Assembly (NCBI GenBank): GCA_965279375.1
Contig: OZ257156.1
Span: forward strand, 4,288,001-4,352,000
From: Gemmatimonas sp.
GTDB lineage: Bacteria; Gemmatimonadota; Gemmatimonadetes; Gemmatimonadales; Gemmatimonadaceae
Direction: 5' to 3'
DNA length: 64,000 nt
The notes beneath the pieces were generated by a model. It worked only from the letters and a program-made list of their open reading frames with translations. It was not told the origin of the DNA and did no database searches. How positions within the stretch are numbered: the first letter of the stretch is position 1; each line of letters begins with the position of its first letter. Below, piece by piece: positions 2,466-62,380 of the stretch. The position numbers and the translations under genes were made by a program.

Positions 2466-3643
2466 TGTCGACGAATACACTGCCGCCGTTTGTGCCGGAC
2501 GCCCTGGTGATCCGCACGACCGGTTCCGATGGCGCTGCCTATGGGGGCTTCCAATGGCCGCGCGAAGTGGGCGCGATCGTCACCGCACCAGACTGGGATC
2601 CGGCGCCGATCTGCGGACACGGCCTGCACGGCCTGCTCGATGGCGACGGTAACTGGTCGTACTTGAGCGACGCCTCGGACGCCTTGTGGTGGATCGTCGA
2701 AGTCGTGCGCGCCGAGTGCGTCGTGATCGATGGCGACAAGGTGAAGTTCCCGCGCTGCCGGGTGAAGAGCATCGGCCAGAGTGCGGCCGCGGTGCGGGAG
2801 ATCATGGCGGCACATCGAGCGCGCGTCGCCGAGATCATCGCGGAAGCGATGCAGTCTGCCACGGCAACGATCGCGACGGCCGACGAGACGTCGGCCGTGG
2901 GCCATGGCGTCCGCGGCCACGCGAGCAGCCATGGCGTCCGCGGCCACGCGAGCAGCCATGGCGACAGCGGCCACGCGAGCAGCCATGGCGTCCGCGGCCA
3001 CGCGAGCAGCCATGGCGACAGCGGCCACGCGAGCAGCCATGGCGACAGCGGCCACGCGAGCAGCCATGGCGACAGCGGCCACGCGAGCAGCCATGGCGAC
3101 AGCGGCCACGCGAGCAGCCATGGCGTCCGCGGCCACGCGAGCAGCCATGGATACCGCGGCCACGCGAGCAGCCATGGATACCGCGGCCACGCGAGCAGCC
3201 ATGGCGTCCGCGGCCACGCGAGCAGCCATGGCGACAGCGGCCACGCGAGCAGCCATGGCGTCCGCGGCCACGCGAGCAGCCATGGCGACAGCGGCCACGC
3301 GAGCAGCCATGGCGTCCGCGGCCACGCGAGCAGCCATGGCGACAGCGGCCACGCGAGCAGCCATGGCGACAGCGGCCACGCGAGCAGCCATGGCGACAGC
3401 GGCCACGCGAGCGTCGCGGGCAAGCAGAGCATCGCGGCGGCACTCGGACCCAACTCGCGTGCGAAAGCGGGTGCGGACGGATGGATCGTCTGCACCGCCT
3501 GGAACATCCCCGATCGCTGGGATCAGCGCACGTGGTCGATCGCGTGTGTGAAAGCGGCGAAGGTCGGCGGCCCGGAAGGCATCAAGCCCGACACTTGGTA
3601 CGCACTCTCGTTCGATGGCGTCTTCGAAGAGGTGGCGTCATGA
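2465..3643 (+). CDS. Phage repeat protein (DUF7666-like N-terminus, His-rich nonapeptide repeats, conserved C-terminus)
   Basis: GFQWP...CGHGLHG...KVKFPRC N-terminus; HGxxGHASS repeats; GIKPDTWY C-terminus. Confidence 0.75.
   Translation: MSTNTLPPFVPDALVIRTTGSDGAAYGGFQWPREVGAIVTAPDWDPAPICGHGLHGLLDGDGNWSYLSDASDALWWIVEVVRAECVVIDGDKVKFPRCRVKSIGQSAAAVREIMAAHRARVAEIIAEAMQSATATIATADETSAVGHGVRGHASSHGVRGHASSHGDSGHASSHGVRGHASSHGDSGHASSHGDSGHASSHGDSGHASSHGDSGHASSHGVRGHASSHGYRGHASSHGYRGHASSHGVRGHASSHGDSGHASSHGVRGHASSHGDSGHASSHGVRGHASSHGDSGHASSHGDSGHASSHGDSGHASVAGKQSIAAALGPNSRAKAGADGWIVCTAWNIPDRWDQRTWSIACVKAAKVGGPEGIKPDTWYALSFDGVFEEVAS
2903..3412 (+). repeat. Tandem 27-bp repeat, 19 units, three variants (HGVRGHASS/HGDSGHASS/HGYRGHASS)
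   Basis: Directly counted: CATGG-variable 7 nt-GGCCACGCGAGCAGC units. Confidence 0.97.
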
Positions 3644-12454: not shown

Positions 12455-13051
12455 ATGCGAAAAATCCCCACGCTTTTTGCCCGCAATCACAACGGCGACA
12501 AGCAAGTCCGCAACGAAGTCACGCCCGGCTGTGAATGGGTGCTGGCCGGCGAAGGCACCGCCACGCGCAAGTACGACGGACTCGCCATCCTGATCCGCGA
12601 TGGGCAGGTCTTCAAGCGCTACGACGCGAAGCCAGGGCGTACGCCGCCGCCGGCCTTCGAGCCCTGCGACCCTGCACCGGATCCGGTGAGCGGCCACTGG
12701 CCCGGCTGGGTGCCGATCGACGAGCGCGCCGATGGGATCATCCTGGAGGGACTGCGGTTCTGGCGTCTCGCGCACAGCGCGGAGCCAGCGAACGGCACCT
12801 ATGAGGTCTGCTCGCCCAAGATCGGCACCCGTGGTGGGGCAGACCCCGAACGGTTGCCATGGACCATCATGGTGCGACACGGCGCCCTCGAGCTCGAGGA
12901 CATGCCCCGCAGCTTCGAGGGCATCCGCGCCGCGCTCGATGGGGCGCGCATCGAAGGTATCGTCTTCCATCACCCGGACGGCCGCATGGCGAAGATCAAG
13001 ACGAAGGACTTCGGCCTGGTCGTGCATCCTGTCGAGGCGCTGACCGCATGA
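12455..13051 (+). CDS. ATP-dependent RNA ligase-like protein (DUF5565/RLIG1-like)
   Basis: MRKIPTLF, ATRKYDG (KxDG), GHWPGWVP, GTYE, IEGIVFHH, MAKIK motifs. Confidence 0.75.
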   Translation: MRKIPTLFARNHNGDKQVRNEVTPGCEWVLAGEGTATRKYDGLAILIRDGQVFKRYDAKPGRTPPPAFEPCDPAPDPVSGHWPGWVPIDERADGIILEGLRFWRLAHSAEPANGTYEVCSPKIGTRGGADPERLPWTIMVRHGALELEDMPRSFEGIRAALDGARIEGIVFHHPDGRMAKIKTKDFGLVVHPVEALTA

Positions 13052-13251
13052 CGGTCACCGTCCAGGTCAACGGGACCAGGCACGGATGCGGCGGCTGTCG
13101 GTGGTGGTGCCCCAAAGCCGAGGCGAGCCTCGTGCGCAAAGGCGAGTGCCGTGCGGCCCCGCCGCAACTCCGCACCGATCCGCAGGACGCCGTCTGGCCC
13201 CTGACGGTCGAAGATGAGTGGTGCGGACACTTTCAACTCCCCGTGCAATGA
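13048..13251 (+). CDS. Small Cys-rich phage protein
   Basis: CGGC...GECRAAPP...WP...WCGHF. Confidence 0.65.
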   Translation: MTVTVQVNGTRHGCGGCRWWCPKAEASLVRKGECRAAPPQLRTDPQDAVWPLTVEDEWCGHFQLPVQ

Positions 13252-13646
13252 ACGGCCCCGATCTCACCGCCGGACCCGTCTGCTGTCGCGACTGCGGACA
13301 GCCGGTCAAGATCGTCTGTGATGCACACGGCACCGACTGTGTGCTCGATCTCCGACCGCTGCCCCCGCAGGCCACCGCGATCCGGACCGCGACCACCCGA
13401 GAGATCCGGGCCGCACAGGTTGCGATCAAGGACGGCACCCATCGTCGCCTCGGCGTAGCTCGCGCCCGGGTCCTCGAGGTCATCAGTCCGGATCCCGAGC
13501 GACCGACCACCACGGGCCAAGTCGCGGATCTCCTCGGGATGAAAATGCCGAACGCCAGCTTCCAGCTCGCCGAATTGGTTCGCATGGGGCTGGCCTTGCG
13601 CATTCGGCACGTCCACTATGCACGTGTCCCGCACCGTCCAGCGTAG
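13248..13646 (+). CDS. Zn-ribbon plus winged-helix DNA-binding protein
   Basis: CRDC...; TTGQVADLLGMKMPNASFQLAELVRMGL. Confidence 0.6.
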   Translation: MNGPDLTAGPVCCRDCGQPVKIVCDAHGTDCVLDLRPLPPQATAIRTATTREIRAAQVAIKDGTHRRLGVARARVLEVISPDPERPTTTGQVADLLGMKMPNASFQLAELVRMGLALRIRHVHYARVPHRPA

Positions 13647-14908: not shown

Positions 14909-16237
14909 GTGCGACTTGACCCGTACCAGGCGCGAGCCCGCGAGCTCTGCGCCGCTGATGGCCACGACCCCGATGCGCGCGTCGGCGAAGGACGCGGCCA
15001 GCCGATGTGGTGTCGCTACCGCGATGCCGCGCGCGCTGAGCATGTCGCGACCGAAGCCGCGGCGCTGACCGCCACCCTGCCGCCGCAAGGCGAGGCCTTC
15101 GCGAACGCGCCGCTCACTGTCTTGGGCGAGCACGACGCCAACACCATCACGCAGATGCAGAACTGTCTCCGCATCGGCAACACGGTGGCGGGCGTGATCT
15201 GCGCGGACGGGCACCTTGGCTATGCGCAGCCCGTTGGTGGCGTGATCGCCTACGAGGGACAGGTCTCGATCTCAGGCGTAGGCTTCGACATCGGCTGCGG
15301 CAACATGGCTGTGAAGCTCGACGTCCCCTTCACCGCCGTGCAGGACAAGGCGCTCGATCTCGCGCGCGAGATTGCGCGCGTCGTGTCATTCGGCGTGGGC
15401 CGCACCAACGACGAGCGCGTCGAGCACGATCTATTCGACGACAGCGAGGAGTGGGACGCGTCGGGAATGCTCGACTACCGCCAGAAGGCGCGCGCGCAGC
15501 TCGGCACCGTCGGCAGCGGGAACCACTACGTCGATCTGATGCGCGATGAATCCGGCTTCGTCTGGATCGGCGTGCACTTCGGGTCGCGTGGCTTGGGGCA
15601 CACGAGCGCGACGCGCTATCTCAAGCTCGCCGGCGGCGTCGATGGCATGAACGTGCCGCCGGCCGTCGTGACCGAGTCAAGCGAGATCGGGGCGCGCTAC
15701 CTCGCCGCGATGGATCTGGCCGGCCGCTACGCCTACGCGGGGCGCGAGTGGGTCGTGGAGCGCGTGCGGCAGATCGTCGGTGGCTCCGTGCTCGACCGCG
15801 TGCACAACCACCACAACTACGCCTGGAAGGAGACACACGGCGGGCGTGACGTGTGGGTCGTGCGGAAGGGCGCGACGCCGGCGTTTCCGGGGCAGCGTGG
15901 ATTCGTTGGCGGCAGCATGGGCGACGACTGCGTCATCCTAGAAGGCGTCGAGAGCCCGCAGAGCGCGTCGGCGCTGTACTCGACAGTGCACGGCGCCGGG
16001 CGTCTCTTTGGTCGGAAGGAAGCCATTCGCCGATTCACGCGCGCCGAGATGGACGCGTGGCTGGTCGAGCGTGGCGTCACACTGCTCGGCGCGGGACTCG
16101 ATGAGAGCCCGATGGCGTATCGTCGACTACCGGACGTGCTGGCGCATCACGCCGGCACGGTGGTGGTGCGGCACACGCTGACGCCGTTCGTGGTCGTGAT
16201 GGCCGGCGATGGTGAAGTAGATCCGTTCAAGGACTAA
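14909..16237 (+). CDS. rtcB: RtcB family 3'-phosphate/5'-OH RNA ligase
   Basis: DGHLGY, GVGFDIGCG, LGTVGSGNHY, HFGSRG, HHN, VRKGATPA, GSMG, HGAGR, DESPMAY. Confidence 0.95.
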   Translation: MRLDPYQARARELCAADGHDPDARVGEGRGQPMWCRYRDAARAEHVATEAAALTATLPPQGEAFANAPLTVLGEHDANTITQMQNCLRIGNTVAGVICADGHLGYAQPVGGVIAYEGQVSISGVGFDIGCGNMAVKLDVPFTAVQDKALDLAREIARVVSFGVGRTNDERVEHDLFDDSEEWDASGMLDYRQKARAQLGTVGSGNHYVDLMRDESGFVWIGVHFGSRGLGHTSATRYLKLAGGVDGMNVPPAVVTESSEIGARYLAAMDLAGRYAYAGREWVVERVRQIVGGSVLDRVHNHHNYAWKETHGGRDVWVVRKGATPAFPGQRGFVGGSMGDDCVILEGVESPQSASALYSTVHGAGRLFGRKEAIRRFTRAEMDAWLVERGVTLLGAGLDESPMAYRRLPDVLAHHAGTVVVRHTLTPFVVVMAGDGEVDPFKD

Positions 16238-22294: not shown

Positions 22295-22514
22295 CCGTCG
22301 TTCGCAGTTGTAGCACGCAGTCGTAGCAGCAGCACACATCGCGTTGTCGGCGGGATGCCGACGACGTGCCACGCACTCGACTCGAGCGCGTGTTGCGCGT
22401 GGGGCGCGCACCAACTCCCGGCGTGGATCGGCATTCGGCCATCCCGCCTCGATCGGTGCGCGCCCTTCGTCGTCTCGGGCCGTCGCACCTCGACATCACT
22501 CCGAGGATCGCACG

Positions 22515-23651
22515 ATGGCCACGAATACTTACGGCAACTACAACGAAGTCTTCTTCGCCCAGGAAGCGCTGCCCTTCCTGAAGAACTCCCTTGGTCTCGC
22601 CTCGCGCATCTACCGCGAGCTCGACGGCGGCACGAAGGAGCAGGGTGACACGACGCAGATCCGTCGCCCGTCGACGTTCGTCGCGCAGAACGCGCCCAGC
22701 ACGGCGCAGGATCTCAACACCCAGAAGGTCACCCTGACGCTCTCGCAGTGGCAGGAAGTGAAGTTCGAGATCACGGACAAGGACCGCGCGCTCACGTCCG
22801 ACAAGATCATCACGGACCACATCGCCCCGGCTGCGTACGCGCTGGCCAACAAGGTCGATGTCGACCTTGCGAGCCTCATCCTGCGCGTGCCGAACGTCGC
22901 GCAGCTCTCCGGCACGTTCGACATCAAGGATCTCGCGAAGGCCACCCAGGTGCTCTTCGATCTCGGCGTGCCGATCGACGATCCGGGCAAGCTCTTCGGC
23001 ATGGTCGACGGCAACCTGAAGACCGAAATCCTCGGCTACATGGCCGGCAAGAACATGATGGGCTACGGCACCGATGCCGCCCGTCAGAAGGGTACGCTCG
23101 CCGAGATCATGGGTGTGAACTGGTTCGCGAACCAGAACACGCCGTCGTTCACGACCAACACCCTCGTCGACGGTGTCGGTGCCCTGACGGCGAACGCCGC
23201 GATCAACGCCACCACGATCGCGATCGGCTCGATCGACGCGACGGGCTCGGTCAAGATCGGCGACACGTTCAGCATCGCCGGCATCACGACGCGCTTCACC
23301 GTCACGGCGAACGCGACGGCGACCGCTGGTGCAATCGCGGCGCTGCAGTTCGAGCCCTCGCTGCCGGCTGCGGTGCTGTCCGGTGCGGTCGTGACGTTCC
23401 ACACGCTCGCGGCGGCGAAGAAGGTGAACTGCGTGTTCCACAAGAACTTCGCCGCGGTGAAGTTCGCCCCGCTGCCCGACGACATGCCGGGTGTGCAGGT
23501 CTACACCGTCACGGATCCGGATTCGGCGCTCTCGATCCGCGCCCGAATCTTCTACGAGGGCAACAACTCGAAGATGTTCGTCGCGCTGGACTGCCTGTAC
23601 GGCTTCCAGATCCTCGACTTCAACTTCGCCACGCGGTTGTACGCCGCGTAA
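22515..23651 (+). CDS. Major capsid protein (P22 coat-like, with insertion domain)
   Basis: GDTTQIRRP, IAPAAYALANKVD, FHKN, LDCLYG. Confidence 0.9.
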   Translation: MATNTYGNYNEVFFAQEALPFLKNSLGLASRIYRELDGGTKEQGDTTQIRRPSTFVAQNAPSTAQDLNTQKVTLTLSQWQEVKFEITDKDRALTSDKIITDHIAPAAYALANKVDVDLASLILRVPNVAQLSGTFDIKDLAKATQVLFDLGVPIDDPGKLFGMVDGNLKTEILGYMAGKNMMGYGTDAARQKGTLAEIMGVNWFANQNTPSFTTNTLVDGVGALTANAAINATTIAIGSIDATGSVKIGDTFSIAGITTRFTVTANATATAGAIAALQFEPSLPAAVLSGAVVTFHTLAAAKKVNCVFHKNFAAVKFAPLPDDMPGVQVYTVTDPDSALSIRARIFYEGNNSKMFVALDCLYGFQILDFNFATRLYAA

Positions 23652-23652
23652 T

Positions 23653-23697
23653 CGACGGGACCCGGTGCACCGCTTCTGGTGCACCGGGTCCTTGTCG
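23653..23697 (+). terminator. Strong hairpin after capsid gene (terminator/attenuator)
   Basis: GGACCCGGTGCACC-GCTTCT-GGTGCACCGGGTCC perfect 14-bp stem; weak U-tract. Confidence 0.65.
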
Positions 23698-23729
23698 TGT
23701 TCCCACTCCCCAACCTGAGACCTCCGCCC

Positions 23730-44521: not shown

Positions 44522-45045
44522 AACGTGCCCTCGGTGCTGCAGCAACACTTGCGATGGCCGCCGTCGTGATCGCCGCTGCGCCGAAGGCTGGCGTGTCGCT
44601 TTCGAACCGTGTCGCCGCGACGAAGGATGCGCGCGTGCTGACCGCAACGATGACGCCCAAGAGTGGATGGGTGGGCCCGTATCGCTGGCGTATCACCGTC
44701 AATGACAGTCTGCGCTGGACCGCGACGGCGCAGCGGGTGGTGGACACGACGACGCTGGGCTTTCCGGTGTGCGTGCGCTACCGCGCGACGGTGTTTCCCT
44801 TCACGCCGGCGCGGGATTCCCTGACGCGCGTGCTCACGCTGTGCCGCACTGGGATGCCGGATGAAGTGGCGCACCTCGACTCGTACCCGGTGCAAACGAT
44901 TCGCGCCAACAAGCCGCCGCGCATCGGCGACTCGACGTCCTACGTCTGCAAGCTGCTGAGGAACAAGTACAACGGCACCGTGCTGTACTTCGATCCGAAG
45001 TGCCGCGATCTCGCAGATGATTTCTACCACGAGCGGCGCCCATGA
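44518..45045 (+). CDS. Secreted protein with signal peptide
   Basis: MKRALGAAATLAMAAVVIAA; four Cys. Confidence 0.6.
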   Translation: MKRALGAAATLAMAAVVIAAAPKAGVSLSNRVAATKDARVLTATMTPKSGWVGPYRWRITVNDSLRWTATAQRVVDTTTLGFPVCVRYRATVFPFTPARDSLTRVLTLCRTGMPDEVAHLDSYPVQTIRANKPPRIGDSTSYVCKLLRNKYNGTVLYFDPKCRDLADDFYHERRP

Positions 45046-45560
45046 CGATCGATTGGGCAGCCGTACACACCGTCGCGCTGAAGCGCGCCCGACGCGAGTC
45101 CGATGATCACGACGAGGCCGATGACGTCGCGTCGATGGTCATGGCGCGTATGTTCTTCTCGGGCACTGAGATCGACGACCCGCAGCGCGTGGCATACGTC
45201 GCCGCACGCAATGCGTTGCTCGATGTGCGCAAGCGTCTGCACACCCGACACGAGCGGCCGTGGCGTGATGGCGATGACGCGGTCGACGAGACGGCAGATC
45301 CGCTCGCCGCGCTGATCGCCGCGCAAGAGCACGCTACACGCCGCCGCGCCCTTCGCTTGGCGCTGCGTGCCCTCTCGCCAGCCGACCGGCAGGCCGTTCG
45401 TCTCTACCACCTCCGGGGCGTGCCGGTGCCCGAAGTGGCGCGCGCGCTTCGGACGACCGAGGGCGCCATGAAGATGCGGCTGATTCGCGCGCGGCACGCG
45501 ATGCGCGCGACGCTCTGCCCCCTGCTTACGAGTGTTTCCTCCTCTTCCTGCCCATCATGA
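45042..45560 (+). CDS. ECF-type sigma-70 factor
   Basis: Region 2 EADDVAS...AARNALLD; region 4 LSPADRQAV.L...EVARAL..TEGAMKMRLIRAR. Confidence 0.88.
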   Translation: MTIDWAAVHTVALKRARRESDDHDEADDVASMVMARMFFSGTEIDDPQRVAYVAARNALLDVRKRLHTRHERPWRDGDDAVDETADPLAALIAAQEHATRRRALRLALRALSPADRQAVRLYHLRGVPVPEVARALRTTEGAMKMRLIRARHAMRATLCPLLTSVSSSSCPS

Positions 45561-51099: not shown

Positions 51100-51636
51100 T
51101 CTCGTGCTTCGTGGCAATCGCCCGTGGTCGTGCAGAGCGAGCAACTCTACGAAGTCTCCATCGACCCTGCGACCGGTGCACGAATCGAAACGCCGTTGAC
51201 GCACGCCACCGTCTTCATTGCGTTGGTGCACTCCGCGGACGTCAATCGGCCGATCGAAGACGTCATCGTGCATCGGCTGCTCTACTCGCAGGCAAACGAA
51301 GTGCTGCCCAGTGGCGTGTACGAAGTCGCGTTCGGTCCACGGGCTGCGCGGCGACATCTTGAGGGACGCTCGAGCGTGTTGGTGCGGGTCGAGATCCCTG
51401 GTGTCTACGTGCAGGTCACCGAACGCCGGATTGATCGCCCGGCCGAACCACGACGTCGCACCGCGCGGCCGATCGCGCCGAGGATGCTCAGGTGGGCATT
51501 GGTGAGCGGAGGGCGCCAGTCACTCGCGTGCGTTGCTGCGTGTGGTACCATGGAGATGCGCTGTCCTGCCGACACGAGAGGAGACGGTCACGCTGGGAAT
51601 GACATCACCACCAAGATCGCGCTGACGTTCCGCTGA
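51092..51636 (+). CDS. Phage hypothetical protein (paralog group A; probable frameshift near 51122)
   Basis: GAGGAG RBS and GTG at 51092 are out of frame with body ORF 51124-51636. Confidence 0.45.
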
Positions 51637-51792
51637 CGCGAGCCGCGATCGTGAGGGCATGATCTATCTCCTCCAGCTGCCCGACGGCACGATCCTGCAG
51701 TGCCGTGACGCCTTCAACGCGCACCAGCTCGCGTCGATCTACCTGTTGCTGCTGCGCCCGGACCCACCGCCCCCCAGCCCCACGTAGCCTAA

Positions 51793-51823
51793 CCTTGCGT
51801 TATTGGCACGGTGCGAGCATCTT
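51793..51823 (+). promoter_or_regulatory. Conserved phage promoter motif copy 4 (divergent)
   Basis: CCTTGCGTTATTGGCACGGTG...CATCTT. Confidence 0.55.
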
Positions 51824-51832
51824 CGACAGACC

Positions 51833-52309
51833 ATGAACGCGCCGCCGCTCCCCGAGTCTGTCTCACTACCGCCCGACGTCCGACGCGACGGGGCGGCGTT
51901 GCTCCAGTCGTCGGCGCCGTTGCGCCGGTATCCCGTAAGCGCCGCTCCGGGCTTCGCGATCGAGGTCTCCGACCACCCGGAGCCCGTCTACCTCCTCGGC
52001 GACGCGGCCAGCATCGAGACGCCGGTGCCGTGTCGCGTGTGTGGCACGTGGAACCCGGCCGTGCTGAGCGGTCGGCATTTTTTCCTCTCGTTCGAGCCCG
52101 ATGCCGCGCTTGAGATCACCAGCGTGCGCCGCGTGCAGCACCACATCGGACGACTCGCCTTTCCATCCGGCTGGGCCGCATCGCCTTGGCTCACCGCGCC
52201 GTCACGCAAGCAGCTCCTCAAGCGACTCGACGAATTCACCGCGGCCTTTGTCGAGCAGCGGCTCGTCCGTCGTCCCGCGCTCTCCCGTACCACGACGGGC
52301 GCGCGATAG
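51833..52309 (+). CDS. Phage hypothetical protein
   Basis: ORF downstream of promoter motif. Confidence 0.55.
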   Translation: MNAPPLPESVSLPPDVRRDGAALLQSSAPLRRYPVSAAPGFAIEVSDHPEPVYLLGDAASIETPVPCRVCGTWNPAVLSGRHFFLSFEPDAALEITSVRRVQHHIGRLAFPSGWAASPWLTAPSRKQLLKRLDEFTAAFVEQRLVRRPALSRTTTGAR

Positions 52310-52346
52310 CAGCACCCTGCAGGTCACCACACTACCCGAGGACCGT

Positions 52347-53186
52347 ATGAGCCCCACCGACGTGCTACTGCATCCCACACCCCCGCTCCCCGCCACCGCG
52401 CTGCAGGTCGATCTCGAGATGGTATCGACGGCAACAACGCCGCCGGCGGAAGCGGAAGCGGAACCCTCAGCGCATCCGCAGCAGGCGGAGAAGGACGCCG
52501 AGGCGAAGCGTCTCGCTGACGCCACCCGCACCGCCGCCGTGCTGGATGCGGCGGCCGTGTTGCTGGCCGAGCGCCCGCGCCGTGCGTCGCTGCGCGAGCT
52601 CGCCGACGAAGCCCTGATGATCGACGCGATTCTCGAAGCCGCTGAGGGCGATCTCACCCCGGAGCTCGAAGCGCGTCTCGACGCGCTGACCGAGGACCTC
52701 ACCCTCAAGGCGGACGGCATCGGCGACTGGCGCGAGACCCTGCAGGCCGAAGTGAATCGCTTCGCTCTGGAGAAGAACCGGTTCAAGGCCGAGACCGATC
52801 GCCTCGCCGCGATCGAGAAGAGCGCCCAGGCGCGCCTCGCCCGCTTCGACGAGCGCACGAAGCAGACGATGCAGCGCATGGGCCGCCTGAAGCTCGAGGG
52901 CGACGTCTGGACCATCACGGTGCAGAGCAATCCGCCGAAACTGATCGTGGACAACGCGGACGCCGTGCCGGCGAGCTACGTGATCACCGAGACCGTGAAG
53001 TCGGTCGATACCGCGGCGCTGAAGGAGGAGTTGATCGCGCGTAAAAAGGCCGACGAAGCGCTCGAGAAGGTCCTCAAGAAGGCCGCGACCGACGAAGAGC
53101 GAGAGGCGATCCGCGCTGCGCAGCCCGCACGGGCCGCGATCGATGGGGCCCATCTCGAAGTCGGCACCACGCTGCGAGCGCGATAA
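52347..53186 (+). CDS. Siphovirus Gp157 family protein
   Basis: LKADGI...KAETDRLAA...TITVQSNPPKL...VPASY...IDGAHLE...LR. Confidence 0.85.
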   Translation: MSPTDVLLHPTPPLPATALQVDLEMVSTATTPPAEAEAEPSAHPQQAEKDAEAKRLADATRTAAVLDAAAVLLAERPRRASLRELADEALMIDAILEAAEGDLTPELEARLDALTEDLTLKADGIGDWRETLQAEVNRFALEKNRFKAETDRLAAIEKSAQARLARFDERTKQTMQRMGRLKLEGDVWTITVQSNPPKLIVDNADAVPASYVITETVKSVDTAALKEELIARKKADEALEKVLKKAATDEEREAIRAAQPARAAIDGAHLEVGTTLRAR

Positions 53187-53191
53187 GCGTC

Positions 53192-53599
53192 GCGCGCATG
53201 GCGCCGGGTGTCGGACTGCGTAAGCACCGAACGGCTGATCGCCGTGGCCCACCCGGTTGTCATGCGCGCACCGTGCTGCGCTAGGTCATGCGTATGCTTC
53301 GCCCGTAGTGTGCCGGGTTGAAGGGCGCCCCTGACTTGTAAGGTCTTGATGCCGACTCCGGCGGCAACTGAGAGGCCTCGAGGCGCAGCACGGAGCGCAG
53401 GCTGAGCAGTCTGAGCCACGGTGTAACGCGTGACGCGAGCGACCGCGACGGTGCAACTCCTTAGCGAACACTCACGGATAGACGGGGATGAACGATCTGT
53501 TCAGCCAGCAGTCAGATAGGCTACGCGACGGCCGCGAAAGGAAGCGTCGAAAAGCTGGCAGGAAGTCGCTCGGCAAACGTCATGCGTTGCATCGGCTCA
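53192..53599 (+). ncRNA. Candidate large structured non-coding RNA (unknown family)
   Basis: No convincing ORF; more than 12 nested stems with many G-U pairs valid only on + strand. Confidence 0.75.
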
Positions 53600-54262
53600 T
53601 GGTCGTGGGGCGAGTTGCGCGAGGAGCAGCTGCCTGATCGCTTCGCGGTCGCTTGGTGGGACACGCCAGTCGCGATGATACTGTTTTCCGGTGAATCGAA
53701 TCACCGTGCGCTTGCTGTGTGCGATGTCGCGCAGCGCATCGAGGTACGGGGTGGCGTCCACATCCCACCACTCCCAGATGCCGCCGGCCGCATTGTCGCG
53801 ATCCACCGCATCGGCTCCGTACGACTCCGGCGTCCAGTCGTAGTAGCCGCTGTCAGTCTTCACCGCGTAGTTCCGGATGAAGAGCCAGTCGTCCGCCACG
53901 TAGGTGACCTGCAGTCGCATCACGAGGCGCTTCCCGGTGTCGATCAAGTACGGCTTCACCGCCGTGCGACTGTTGACGAACTTCGGCGAATTCGGGTGCG
54001 TGTACGTGGTCTGGCCGGTGACGGAATCGATCGTCTTGCGCAGCGCCTTGAGGGCGACCCGCTCCTCACGAAACGCGGCGGTATCTGCGGCCGGCGTGGT
54101 GTCGGTCAAGACGGGCAGCCTCGAGGTGTCGGCAGCCGCGCTGCGCGCCGGCGCAGCGTCAGAGCATTTCCCGATGATCAACAGCCCAATAAACGCAGCG
54201 ATGAGACCGCCGCAGCCCAGCGGAAGACAGCCCACGTCGACGCCATTTGCAATCTTTACCAC
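53597..54262 (-). CDS. Membrane-anchored/exported moron protein
   Basis: Opposite strand; GCGGLIAAFIGLLIIGKC TM; periplasmic-like domain. Confidence 0.7.
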   Translation of the reverse strand: MVKIANGVDVGCLPLGCGGLIAAFIGLLIIGKCSDAAPARSAAADTSRLPVLTDTTPAADTAAFREERVALKALRKTIDSVTGQTTYTHPNSPKFVNSRTAVKPYLIDTGKRLVMRLQVTYVADDWLFIRNYAVKTDSGYYDWTPESYGADAVDRDNAAGGIWEWWDVDATPYLDALRDIAHSKRTVIRFTGKQYHRDWRVPPSDREAIRQLLLAQLAPRP

Positions 54263-54423
54263 GTAAATCGCCTCATCGTTAAGGAACCGTCACCGGGGAC
54301 CGCAGACGCTGCACCGACGCGTCTTGCCAGTTTTCCCCACACTGTCCACAGCGGACAAATTGTCCCGTTGCCTCGCGTGCACCGGATTCGTAGCGTACTG
54401 ATGCACCCCGAAACAAAACCGAA

Positions 54424-54684
54424 ATGACTGATTGGGTGGTCTACAATTACCGCGTGATTTTGCCCTGTGCGCACCCGGTGCGCGCCAACCCGGGCGACAT
54501 CATTCGCGTCCGTCCTGGGCATCCGACCGCGCCGGTCGCCGTGTGGCGACGACAGCGCGGCGAATGGACCCGTATCCGCGTCGGCCCACCGAACTACGGT
54601 GGCTTGATCATTCAGGAGTACAACGGCGTCATATCGCGACCGGAGGCTTCAGAGGCCCAACACTCAGATATGGGCGCTGCTTAG
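54424..54684 (+). CDS. Phage hypothetical protein
   Basis: ORF preceded by TTGCCT-17-TAGCGT (54368-54396). Confidence 0.5.
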   Translation: MTDWVVYNYRVILPCAHPVRANPGDIIRVRPGHPTAPVAVWRRQRGEWTRIRVGPPNYGGLIIQEYNGVISRPEASEAQHSDMGAA

Positions 54685-60245: not shown

Positions 60246-61586
60246 ATGACGACTGCGCGCACGACGAAGAAGCGGAAGGAGCTGTATCGCGCGGGTCGCC
60301 ATGGCGACACCGTGCGCGTGGTCGTCGATACCGTCGAGCAGCGCGCGATTGTCTACTACCGCGACGCCGATGGCGTCGAGCACAAGAAGAAGTACCCTCT
60401 GAGCAAAGAGGGGCGCGCCGAAGCGATCGCGTTCGCGGAAGGGTGGCACGCGGAGCGCGAGCGCATGGTGCGGGCGCGACGCGAGGCCGTCACCCAGACT
60501 GTCGTGACGGTGCGAGATCTCTGGACTGCCTTCAAGGCAAGCGAGTTCTCGAGTGATGTCGGCGAAGGCCTGCGCCAGGCGACACAGGTGTCGTACACGC
60601 ACCACTTCCGCCGCTTCGAACTGTTCGTTGGGAAGGATCGTGCGGCCGAATCCATCAAGGTCCATGAGCTGGCGACGATGCGGAAGGAGGAGCGGGCCGC
60701 AGGGCGCGCCCTCAACCAGACGCGCCAGACCATGAACGTGGTGCGCATTGTGTTTCGCTGGGGCATCGAGCACGAGATGCTGCAGCACTCCCCGCTGGCC
60801 GTGATGCGGTGGAAGACCCGCAAGGATGCGCCCGCCCCGTTGGCTCCTGACGAGTACTCGACCGAGGAGTTCGAAGCGCTGCTGCGGGTCGTGGATCGCG
60901 ACGACACGCGGCAGTGGCGCGCGTGGGTGTTCCTGATGCTGGCCGGCCACTACGGGCAGCGCGCGAACGCCGTGCTGCATCTGCGGTGGCGCGACATCGA
61001 TGTCGATGCCGGCGTGATCACGTGGCCAGGGCGCTACCAGAAGCAGGGCAAGGACCTCCCGCGGCCGTTGACCTGGGAGGCGTGGTCGGCGCTCCTCACC
61101 GCGCGGGCGCAACGTGAACGGGTGGTCACATTCAAGAAACTGGCACACCACACCAATACTTTGGCGTCCGCAGCCCGGTTAGATGAGGCCGACTGGGTCC
61201 TCTTCGCAGAGCGCGACAAGGCCAAACCGATGAGCTACCAGTCGATGCACTACCACCTCGTCCACGCGGAGAAGCGCGCCAAGGTCGAGCCCAAGCCGTA
61301 CCGGAAGGCGCACGGATTCCGCCGCATGGTGGTGGGCAACGTGATTGCCGCGACCGGTGACCGGATGCTCGGGCTCGAGGTCGTGGGCGACAAGGATCCC
61401 AAGGTCCTGACGTCCTACGATCGGCGGCTGGCGGCCCGGGTGGCGGCCGGCATGGCGGCGGTCGCGACGACCGGGGCCGATGGAGAGGCATTGTCGAAAG
61501 CGTCCCGGAATCTTCCCGACGTGCCGACAAACGAAACGGCGCCCACCGAAGCGGACGCCGTAAACCCAACAACGACAGAGGTTTAG
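60246..61586 (+). CDS. int: Tyrosine recombinase/integrase
   Basis: YGQRANAVLHLRWRDID, HGFRR, SYD; adjacent to tRNA. Confidence 0.9.
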   Translation: MTTARTTKKRKELYRAGRHGDTVRVVVDTVEQRAIVYYRDADGVEHKKKYPLSKEGRAEAIAFAEGWHAERERMVRARREAVTQTVVTVRDLWTAFKASEFSSDVGEGLRQATQVSYTHHFRRFELFVGKDRAAESIKVHELATMRKEERAAGRALNQTRQTMNVVRIVFRWGIEHEMLQHSPLAVMRWKTRKDAPAPLAPDEYSTEEFEALLRVVDRDDTRQWRAWVFLMLAGHYGQRANAVLHLRWRDIDVDAGVITWPGRYQKQGKDLPRPLTWEAWSALLTARAQRERVVTFKKLAHHTNTLASAARLDEADWVLFAERDKAKPMSYQSMHYHLVHAEKRAKVEPKPYRKAHGFRRMVVGNVIAATGDRMLGLEVVGDKDPKVLTSYDRRLAARVAAGMAAVATTGADGEALSKASRNLPDVPTNETAPTEADAVNPTTTEV

Positions 61587-61601
61587 CAATGCTACCCCGA
61601 G

Positions 61602-61673
61602 AGCCACAGATCGGGATTGAACCGATGACCGCCCGATTACGAATCGGGTGCTCTACCGCTGAGCTACTGTGGC
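61602..61673 (-). tRNA. tRNA-Thr(CGT); probable prophage att site
   Basis: Cloverleaf; CCCGA-TTCGTAA-TCGGG anticodon arm; no encoded CCA. Confidence 0.95.
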
Positions 61674-62138: not shown

Positions 62139-62211
62139 TAGCGGTAACGGGATTCGAACCCGTGTTCCAGCCTTGAGAGGGCTGTGTCCTAGTCCCCTAG
62201 ACGATACCGCC
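62139..62211 (-). tRNA. tRNA-Glu(CTC)
   Basis: Cloverleaf; CTCTCAA loop. Confidence 0.95.
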
Positions 62212-62380
62212 AAGGTGATTCCGCCGGAGGCGGAATCGCCCTGGCGGTCTCGGGAGATGCGCATCGCTTCGCGAAGCACACCCCTTCCTGCTTCGAGTCG
62301 TGATCGCGTTGCGGTCACTCCTCTCTTCGAGCTCGGCCGACAACCCGAACCCGCTCGAACATCGACAACGTGTGCACCAA

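Follow-up and report, generated by a model that had tools for sequence, protein, structure and literature searches.

Strand-specific predicted folding of a 410-nt spacer between converging prophage genes in Gemmatimonas

In a Gemmatimonas prophage, a non-coding gap between the stop codon of a gp157/Gam-like gene on the + strand and the stop codon of a convergent lipoprotein-like gene on the - strand is filled almost exactly by a well-defined predicted fold of the + strand. The gap spans positions 53187-53598 of the window, by which we mean the whole 64-kb stretch of DNA that was analysed. The observation is real, strand-specific, and extreme for the genome. As an explanation, we tentatively favour, with a rough probability of one in three (about 0.35), that the spacer is a cis-acting structured 3' region, which would protect the gp157 transcript and insulate it at the convergent junction. 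The original prediction saw in the gap a functional phage RNA under selection for its structure. Of this reading, the well-defined fold of the RNA strand, the non-coding character and the novelty with respect to Rfam have stood, but neither a homologue nor the expected promoter was found. Because no homologue was found, the case for selection on structure comes from a single sequence.

The predicted fold and its strand asymmetry

The + strand of 53187-53600 has an MFE of -204.8 kcal/mol, compared with -177.9±5.9 for 100 dinucleotide shuffles. It clearly beats these shuffles (z -4.57, 0/100 as good), whereas the - strand does not (MFE -164.7, z -0.18, 43/100 as good). The + strand ensemble is also narrow, with a diversity of 33 against 103±30 in shuffles (0/60 as low), versus 65 for the - strand (6/60 as low). 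With DNA energy parameters, the contrast between the strands is smaller than with RNA parameters (z -2.94 for + and -1.64 for -). In the predicted + strand fold, 288 of 414 nt are paired; 16 of the 144 pairs are G-U, and the mean pair probability is 0.92. The fold consists of three closed domains and a small linker hairpin (Table 1), begins one nucleotide past the gp157 stop, and reaches into the stop codon of the convergent gene, with which the last pairs of domain 3 overlap.

Table 1. Predicted structural elements of the spacer and genes around it (window coordinates)
Feature	Position	Strand	Details
Conserved phage gene	51803..52309	+	upstream of gp157, overlaps long gp157 ORF; GC3 frame fits
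gp157 / Mu Gam-like gene	52347..53186	+	Pfam PF05565 2.9e-20; PHROG 253 3.6e-23
Joint closing helix of domains 1 and 2, 4 bp	53187-53190/53395-53398	+	MFE; pair probability 0.84
Domain 1	53192..53269	+	12+7-bp closing stem, three-way junction with GUAA hairpin and 5-bp hairpin; MFE -50.3
Domain 2	53271..53393	+	12-bp closing stem (1 G-U, 53271-53282/53382-53393), two branched arms, 53283-53337 and 53341-53378; MFE
Linker hairpin AGGCU-GAGC-AGUCU	53399..53412	+	pair probability 0.74
Domain 3	53413..53598	+	5+16+8-bp closing stem, multi-branched interior; closing-stem pair probabilities 0.87-0.99
Convergent conserved hypothetical gene, 221 aa	53597..54262	-	signal/lipoprotein-like N-terminus; stop codon 53597-53599

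The domains differ in how far their strands diverge. Domain 1 is closed by helices 53192-53203/53258-53269 (12 bp, 2 G-U) and 53204-53210/53250-53256 (7 bp), and its MFE structure contains the GUAA hairpin at 53217-53226 and the ACGGC/GCCGU hairpin at 53231-53245. It reaches a z of -4.29 on the + strand (0/300 shuffles as good) and of -3.31 on the - strand, with a local-fold z of -5.2. The corresponding values are -3.39 (1/300 shuffles), -1.76 and -3.88 for domain 2, and -4.37 (0/300 shuffles), -1.32 and -4.71 for domain 3. The latter is built from helices 53420-53435/53578-53593 (16 bp, 3 G-U), 53436-53443/53565-53572 (8 bp) and 53504-53509/53554-53559, with AGUC/GGCU and CGACG/CGUCG as further helices in the MFE structure. 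The linker hairpin folds no better than shuffles (z -0.6).

Most stems of the original prediction are present both in the sequence and in the MFE structure, with two exceptions. The AGGTC/GGCCT junction with three hairpins in domain 2 is replaced by the two arms listed in Table 1, and the TGAAC/GTTCA hairpin has to compete with another pairing that has a probability of about 0.6. The assertion that non-Watson-Crick pairs are G-U on the + strand holds for all six such pairs in the three long closing helices, none of which is A-C, but the helices were defined on the + strand, which biases this count. A proposed pseudoknot between AGTGT (53307-53311) and ACACT (53468-53472) was dropped: both partners are unpaired in the MFE structure, but 5 bp is chance level.

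The fold signal is less exceptional than a single z-score implies, yet still unusual. In 414-nt windows placed on a fixed grid across the 64 kb (616 window-strands), the native z has a mean of -0.37 and a standard deviation of 1.10, with nine values at or below -3. The z-score of the site depends on tuned boundaries, because the two grid windows that straddle it give only -2.06 and -2.18, compared with -4.10 on the same scale for the tuned coordinates. An RNALfold scan of the 64 kb with z-scores (span 200) detected 43 non-overlapping folds with z at or below -4 on the + strand and 32 on the - strand, many of them in coding DNA. What sets the element apart is the distribution of such folds. The three domain folds tile 0.95-0.97 of the gap on the + strand and 0.00-0.05 on the - strand, and among the 10 strand-windows, at 8 places, that have 80% coverage or more in 224 kb scanned, all others have at least 36% on the opposite strand.

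At the scale of the genome, the element ranks first among 147 convergent gaps of 250-900 nt. Among 761 intergenic gaps, as defined by a crude GC3-based gene caller, it takes fourth place in fold coverage and first place in strand asymmetry (388 nt, followed by 352 nt in an 843-nt gap). The measure marks the element as extreme and says nothing on function. It is not validated as an RNA detector, because the next 20 most strand-asymmetric gaps contain a single RNA known to Rfam, a tRNA, and the host tmRNA has a local-fold coverage of 0 (z -2.14 sense, -0.95 antisense).

Other strong local folds occur in the window. Strong scores on both strands at 2850-3400 (z about -4) are due to a tandem array with a 33-nt unit of the type GCCATGGCG[TC/AC][CA]GCGGCCACGCGAGCA. 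A very strong local hairpin at 23502-23705, again on both strands (z -6.6 and -5.8), lies right behind the major capsid gene (22344-23651) and is probably a terminator or attenuator. The strongest local fold of the window (62192-62257; z -6.5 and -7.2 on the two strands) falls into the interval between tRNA-Glu and tRNA-Trp in a host tRNA cluster. Finally, + strand local folds are dense at 12697-13482 (five, z -3.7 to -4.2).

The gap and its prophage setting

The host genome is complete (5.31 Mb, 65% GC), and the window is mostly prophage. An integrase gene (60246-61586) adjoins tRNA-Thr (61601-61673) at the prophage end, and the end of the tRNA is repeated exactly, over 35 nt, at genome positions 4274283-4274317, 13.7 kb left of the window start. 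From these two ends, the prophage measures about 75 kb, close in size to G528, a complete related phage of 73.7 kb with terminal repeats. Recognised genes include those for terminase, portal, capsid, a tape-measure-like protein, RtcB ligase, a sigma-factor-like protein, RadC, AAA_24 and SSB. The RtcB-type RNA ligase (14909-16237; Pfam 1.1e-63; PHROG 1075 1.2e-72) probably serves in the repair of cleaved tRNAs.

The flanking genes converge on the gap, a layout that the original prediction had missed. Given the convergent flanks, a role at the 3' end or as an insulator is no less likely than that of a ribozyme, scaffold or guide that stands alone. On the gp157 side, the longest ORF begins at 52101, but the GC3 frame signal is seen only from near 52300, and the start is probably the ATG at 52347, which is preceded by GAGGA. 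The product of the conserved gene further upstream has counterparts with 60-61% identity in the related phage loci L092 and L098. Within this gene, just ahead of the first ATG of the long gp157 ORF, there is a terminator-like hairpin with a T run (52055-52085), which is probably not a working terminator.

On the other side, the convergent gene is a - strand ORF; it is this ORF that agrees with the GC3 frame, and not the + strand ORF that overlaps it. Its 221-aa product matched no Pfam or PHROG family, but has 10 other homologues, and 27 columns are invariant in a 7-sequence alignment. The protein has a hydrophobic N-terminus with a cysteine, its family shares a conserved YVADDWLF and WEW core, and a lipobox-like LGSC is seen in the more distant homologues. 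The protein may be a lipoprotein of the prophage, for example of the superinfection-exclusion type.

The gap itself has no coding signal, with GC by codon position flat across 53220-53580. Among its six short ORFs, none matches a PHROG family at an E-value under 0.48, and tblastx against related phages and the own genome gave only chance-level matches. A protein-coding or decayed gene was dismissed on these grounds. The notion that this is the longest gene-free gap of the prophage was not confirmed, as other stretches with weak codon periodicity exist. On the + strand, the gap contains 143 G and 121 C (GC content 64%).

No sigma-70-like promoter was found in 51500-54600, and none in the gap on either strand, so that the promoter postulated at 51793 is not borne out; the scan is of limited reach, because the phage encodes a sigma-70 region-4 protein (ECF-like, 45042-45560) and phage promoters may not resemble sigma-70 sites. 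A hairpin followed by a U run was likewise absent from 53187-53600 on either strand, and the five terminator-like sites that were found, at 52055-52078, 54194-54214 and 54436, are all outside the gap. An intrinsic terminator was therefore rejected as the identity of the element.

Relatives of the element and competing explanations

Homologues of the element were found neither in phage and plasmid records nor in about 700 related genomes, 59 neighbour-gene loci and four related virus records. Blastn with 53150-53650 returned none from the phage and plasmid records. BLAST of the element itself matched 0 of 60 relatives, and in 400 genomes of the class it gave only fragments of 20-55 nt, of at most 45.5 bits, in 51 of the 400 (to this count only, the unpublished genome G381 contributes one chance fragment). 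Covariance models of the three domains (R1-R3) match only the window itself. The domain-3 model reached a best E of 0.06 in 86 other genomes of the genus and 150 other genomes of the order, with none at E <= 0.01 in the order sample, and none of the three models matches in the related virus records G527-G530, which were searched whole.

Searches by way of the neighbouring genes had the same outcome. The 59 loci with homologues of the convergent gene gave no blastn or nhmmer match, and no covariance model match better than E 0.15. The gp157 protein as a lone query against genome contigs and viral contigs led to no homologue of the element, and in the 86 other genomes of the genus it has one distant match, without a gap behind it. 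Two exact-word scans of viral contigs produced 0 matches and 1 chance match in a coding region.

Two related phages, G528 and G527, were reached via the neighbouring AAA_24 and RadC genes, and the element is absent from both. G528 has RadC, the genes 50695, 51803 and 55529, AAA_24 and SSB in common with the prophage at 50-66% identity. In the corresponding slot (L092), it carries an HTH-peptidase gene and a canonical bidirectional terminator. G527 (L098) has a 51803-like gene and a gp157 homologue (40% identical), directly followed by further genes, and no structured stretch was detected behind this homologue (z about 0). As regards conservation of the neighbourhood, the slot is variable: the two related phages hold other cargo in it, and the element, itself cargo, is an orphan among the collections reached.

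No public run that contains the stretch is on record as RNA. Near-identical short contigs of the region do occur in other public runs, in 16 entries from 12 studies, and four of them were compared with the sequence. They do not bear on expression, and stretches that they leave uncovered do not count as evidence. A 172-nt contig from another sample, which covers 53239-53410 (domains 1-2), has a single difference, A53283G, which would convert an A-U pair of domain 2 to G-U. The same run yields another contig, 238 nt long and over 52147-52378, which has 14 differences. This is a single observation, and the two contigs may stem from different genomes.

The cis-acting role that we favour would work as follows. 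Transcription of the + strand would run from gp157 through the spacer, which would form the end of the message and fold along its whole length, between the two stop codons, into three closed domains of high stability. Such a structure could block 3'-to-5' exonucleases and thereby stabilise the upstream message. It could also act as a G-rich structured buffer that denies Rho a loading site where the long rightward transcript meets the leftward lipoprotein-like gene. The - strand transcript, less folded and C-richer, would be the better Rho substrate.

This role is preferred because the fold spans the gap from stop to stop, neither promoter nor terminator turned up in it, the + strand is G-rich, and Rho is present in the host genome. 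With the gap filled in this way, there is no room for a promoter of the element's own outside gp157. As the + strand is G-rich and Rho is present, Rho is expected on the poorly folded, C-richer - strand transcript and not on the + strand transcript. Restriction of the structure to the + strand, and the first ranks among convergent gaps and in asymmetry among all gaps, also count in its favour. By analogy, the terminator of G528 at a convergent junction in the corresponding slot would fit a 3'-end function there. Against a cis-acting role, a three-domain element of 410 nt far exceeds the need of a 3' stabiliser, and, as no terminator follows, transcription of the + strand may simply continue through the next gene in antisense. 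Moreover, the phage of locus L098 has a gp157 homologue with no such element after it, no homologue of the element was found, and strong local folds are common in this GC-rich DNA.

An alternative is that the spacer is functionless, a remnant of palindrome-rich DNA that was inserted, or of a module that decayed, between cargo genes, with the fold as a by-product of GC-rich inverted repeats. We regard this as somewhat unlikely, although a good deal is consistent with it. The slot holds variable cargo, and different genes take its place in G528 and G527. The element is single-copy and has no homologue in the collections, domain 1 folds well on the - strand too, the 64 kb contain 75 local folds with z at or below -4, many within genes, and on the fixed grid the site reaches a z of only about -2.1. 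Against it, the strand asymmetry is the strongest of 761 gaps, and all six wobble pairs of the closing helices are G-U on the + strand. The element is not repeated in the genome, and there is no translated similarity to a decayed gene. A REP- or MITE-type repeated palindrome was discarded, since both BLAST and the three covariance models find a single copy in the own genome. Besides, it is rare for phages to retain 410 nt of DNA that serves no purpose.

A free-standing ornate phage RNA of a new class, with a start of its own or cut from the gp157 transcript, and acting in trans or by self-assembly as scaffold, decoy, ribozyme or guide, is unlikely in our estimate. The three independently closed and well-defined predicted domains with a GNRA loop and multi-way junctions would suit such an RNA. 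Thermodynamically, the element gives a far stronger signal than the host tmRNA, it tops 761 gaps in strand asymmetry, and the contig over domains 1-2 has 1 difference, versus 14 in the contig over 52147-52378. No known family accounts for it either. When the 4227 models of Rfam 15, presumably including GOLLD and ROOL, were applied with the family gathering thresholds as criterion, only seven tRNAs (61.6-62.6 kb) passed in the window, none of them in the gap. Even at E <= 10, the best match in 53000-53800 had 21.4 bits, against a threshold of 71. The novelty with respect to Rfam that was claimed for the element is thus supported.

On the other hand, the known ornate RNAs recur, and the GOLLD and ROOL classes are defined by many homologues with covariation, whereas the element has no homologue in any collection searched. 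It is framed by neither promoter nor terminator, its proposed pseudoknot has only 5 bp, and helices as long and perfect as these are seen more often in hairpin elements than in globular RNAs. Typical partner proteins were not found in the genome. A retron or another defence reverse-transcriptase ncRNA was ruled out, as PF00078 has no match in the genome. A bacterial Y RNA, considered since the phage carries RtcB, was set aside in the absence of Ro/TROVE (PF05731) from the genome and of an Rfam match. ARAGORN detects no tRNA or tmRNA in the gap, and inspection of the element by eye fitted no hammerhead core, sigma-54 promoter or integron attC motif. The more specific idea of a new orphan class, a phage RNA of about 410 nt and three domains that acts alone as scaffold, decoy or self-assembling particle, in an order that apparently lacks RNase III and so would tolerate very long helices, is a shade less probable still. 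A functional RNA like GOLLD or ROOL would, on the evidence of this one sequence, be an orphan candidate.

A role at the level of DNA, in which the spacer would be read in single-stranded or cruciform form, for example in recombination or as a signal for replication or single-strand initiation, is very unlikely: the spacer does have long inverted repeats (arms of 16-31 nt), beats shuffles on the + strand with DNA parameters as well, and lies in the early/recombination region next to the Gam-like, AAA_24 and SSB genes, but the signal is stronger with RNA parameters, there are no iterons or notable direct repeats, the GC content leaves no AT-rich unwinding region, and the element is missing from related phages that share the replication and recombination genes.

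Comparison with known systems

If the RNA is real, it is an unusually large structured element at a place where two phage transcription units meet, and it might shed light on the way in which phages form 3' ends in hosts that lack RNase III. Otherwise, it serves as a warning that many coding stretches in 65% GC DNA approach z-scores near -4.6, and that single-sequence thermodynamics are no substitute for covariation.

GOLLD and ROOL are large ornate RNAs, and are frequent in phages and prophages according to two reports (10.1101/2024.12.08.627333; PMC5737381). The element resembles them as a predicted multi-domain RNA of several hundred nucleotides, located in a gene-free stretch of prophage DNA, and without a known function. 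Unlike GOLLD and ROOL, it matches no Rfam model and has no homologue in the searches above, and it is shorter and dominated by long closing helices.

A second comparison is with stabilising or processing 3' stem-loops, of which the lambda sib retroregulator behind int, with its RNase III route, is a well-known type. Like these, the element lies directly behind a phage gene and on the same strand as the gene, and its helices of 19-29 bp are long. In size, it exceeds a typical 3' stem-loop about tenfold. The closing stems of domain 1 (12+7 bp) and domain 3 (5+16+8 bp) have the length expected of an RNase III-type helix (about two turns). In a report on RNase III (PMC6212723), sites of the enzyme are enriched in the intergenic parts of transcripts, in 5' UTRs and in ncRNAs.

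In contrast to lambda sib, the RNase III route as such is unlikely to apply to the element, and processing of this type was dropped, since searches of the host genome detected no gene for this enzyme. PF14622, PF00636 and TIGR02191 match nothing in the complete genome, whereas controls do match. Of 30 relatives, each at least 95% complete, a single one has a TIGR02191 match, whereas control genomes do match. A bacterial order without RNase III, as the genome and 29 of the 30 relatives suggest, would be notable in itself.

The closest counterpart by position is the bidirectional terminator of G528 (L092, 12715-12755). As with the element, converging units meet there, in the slot between the RadC and the AAA_24/SSB modules. 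The G528 terminator is a single 14-bp hairpin that is flanked by A and U runs and folds equally well on both strands, whereas the element occupies 410 nt, dispenses with a U run, and folds on one strand only.
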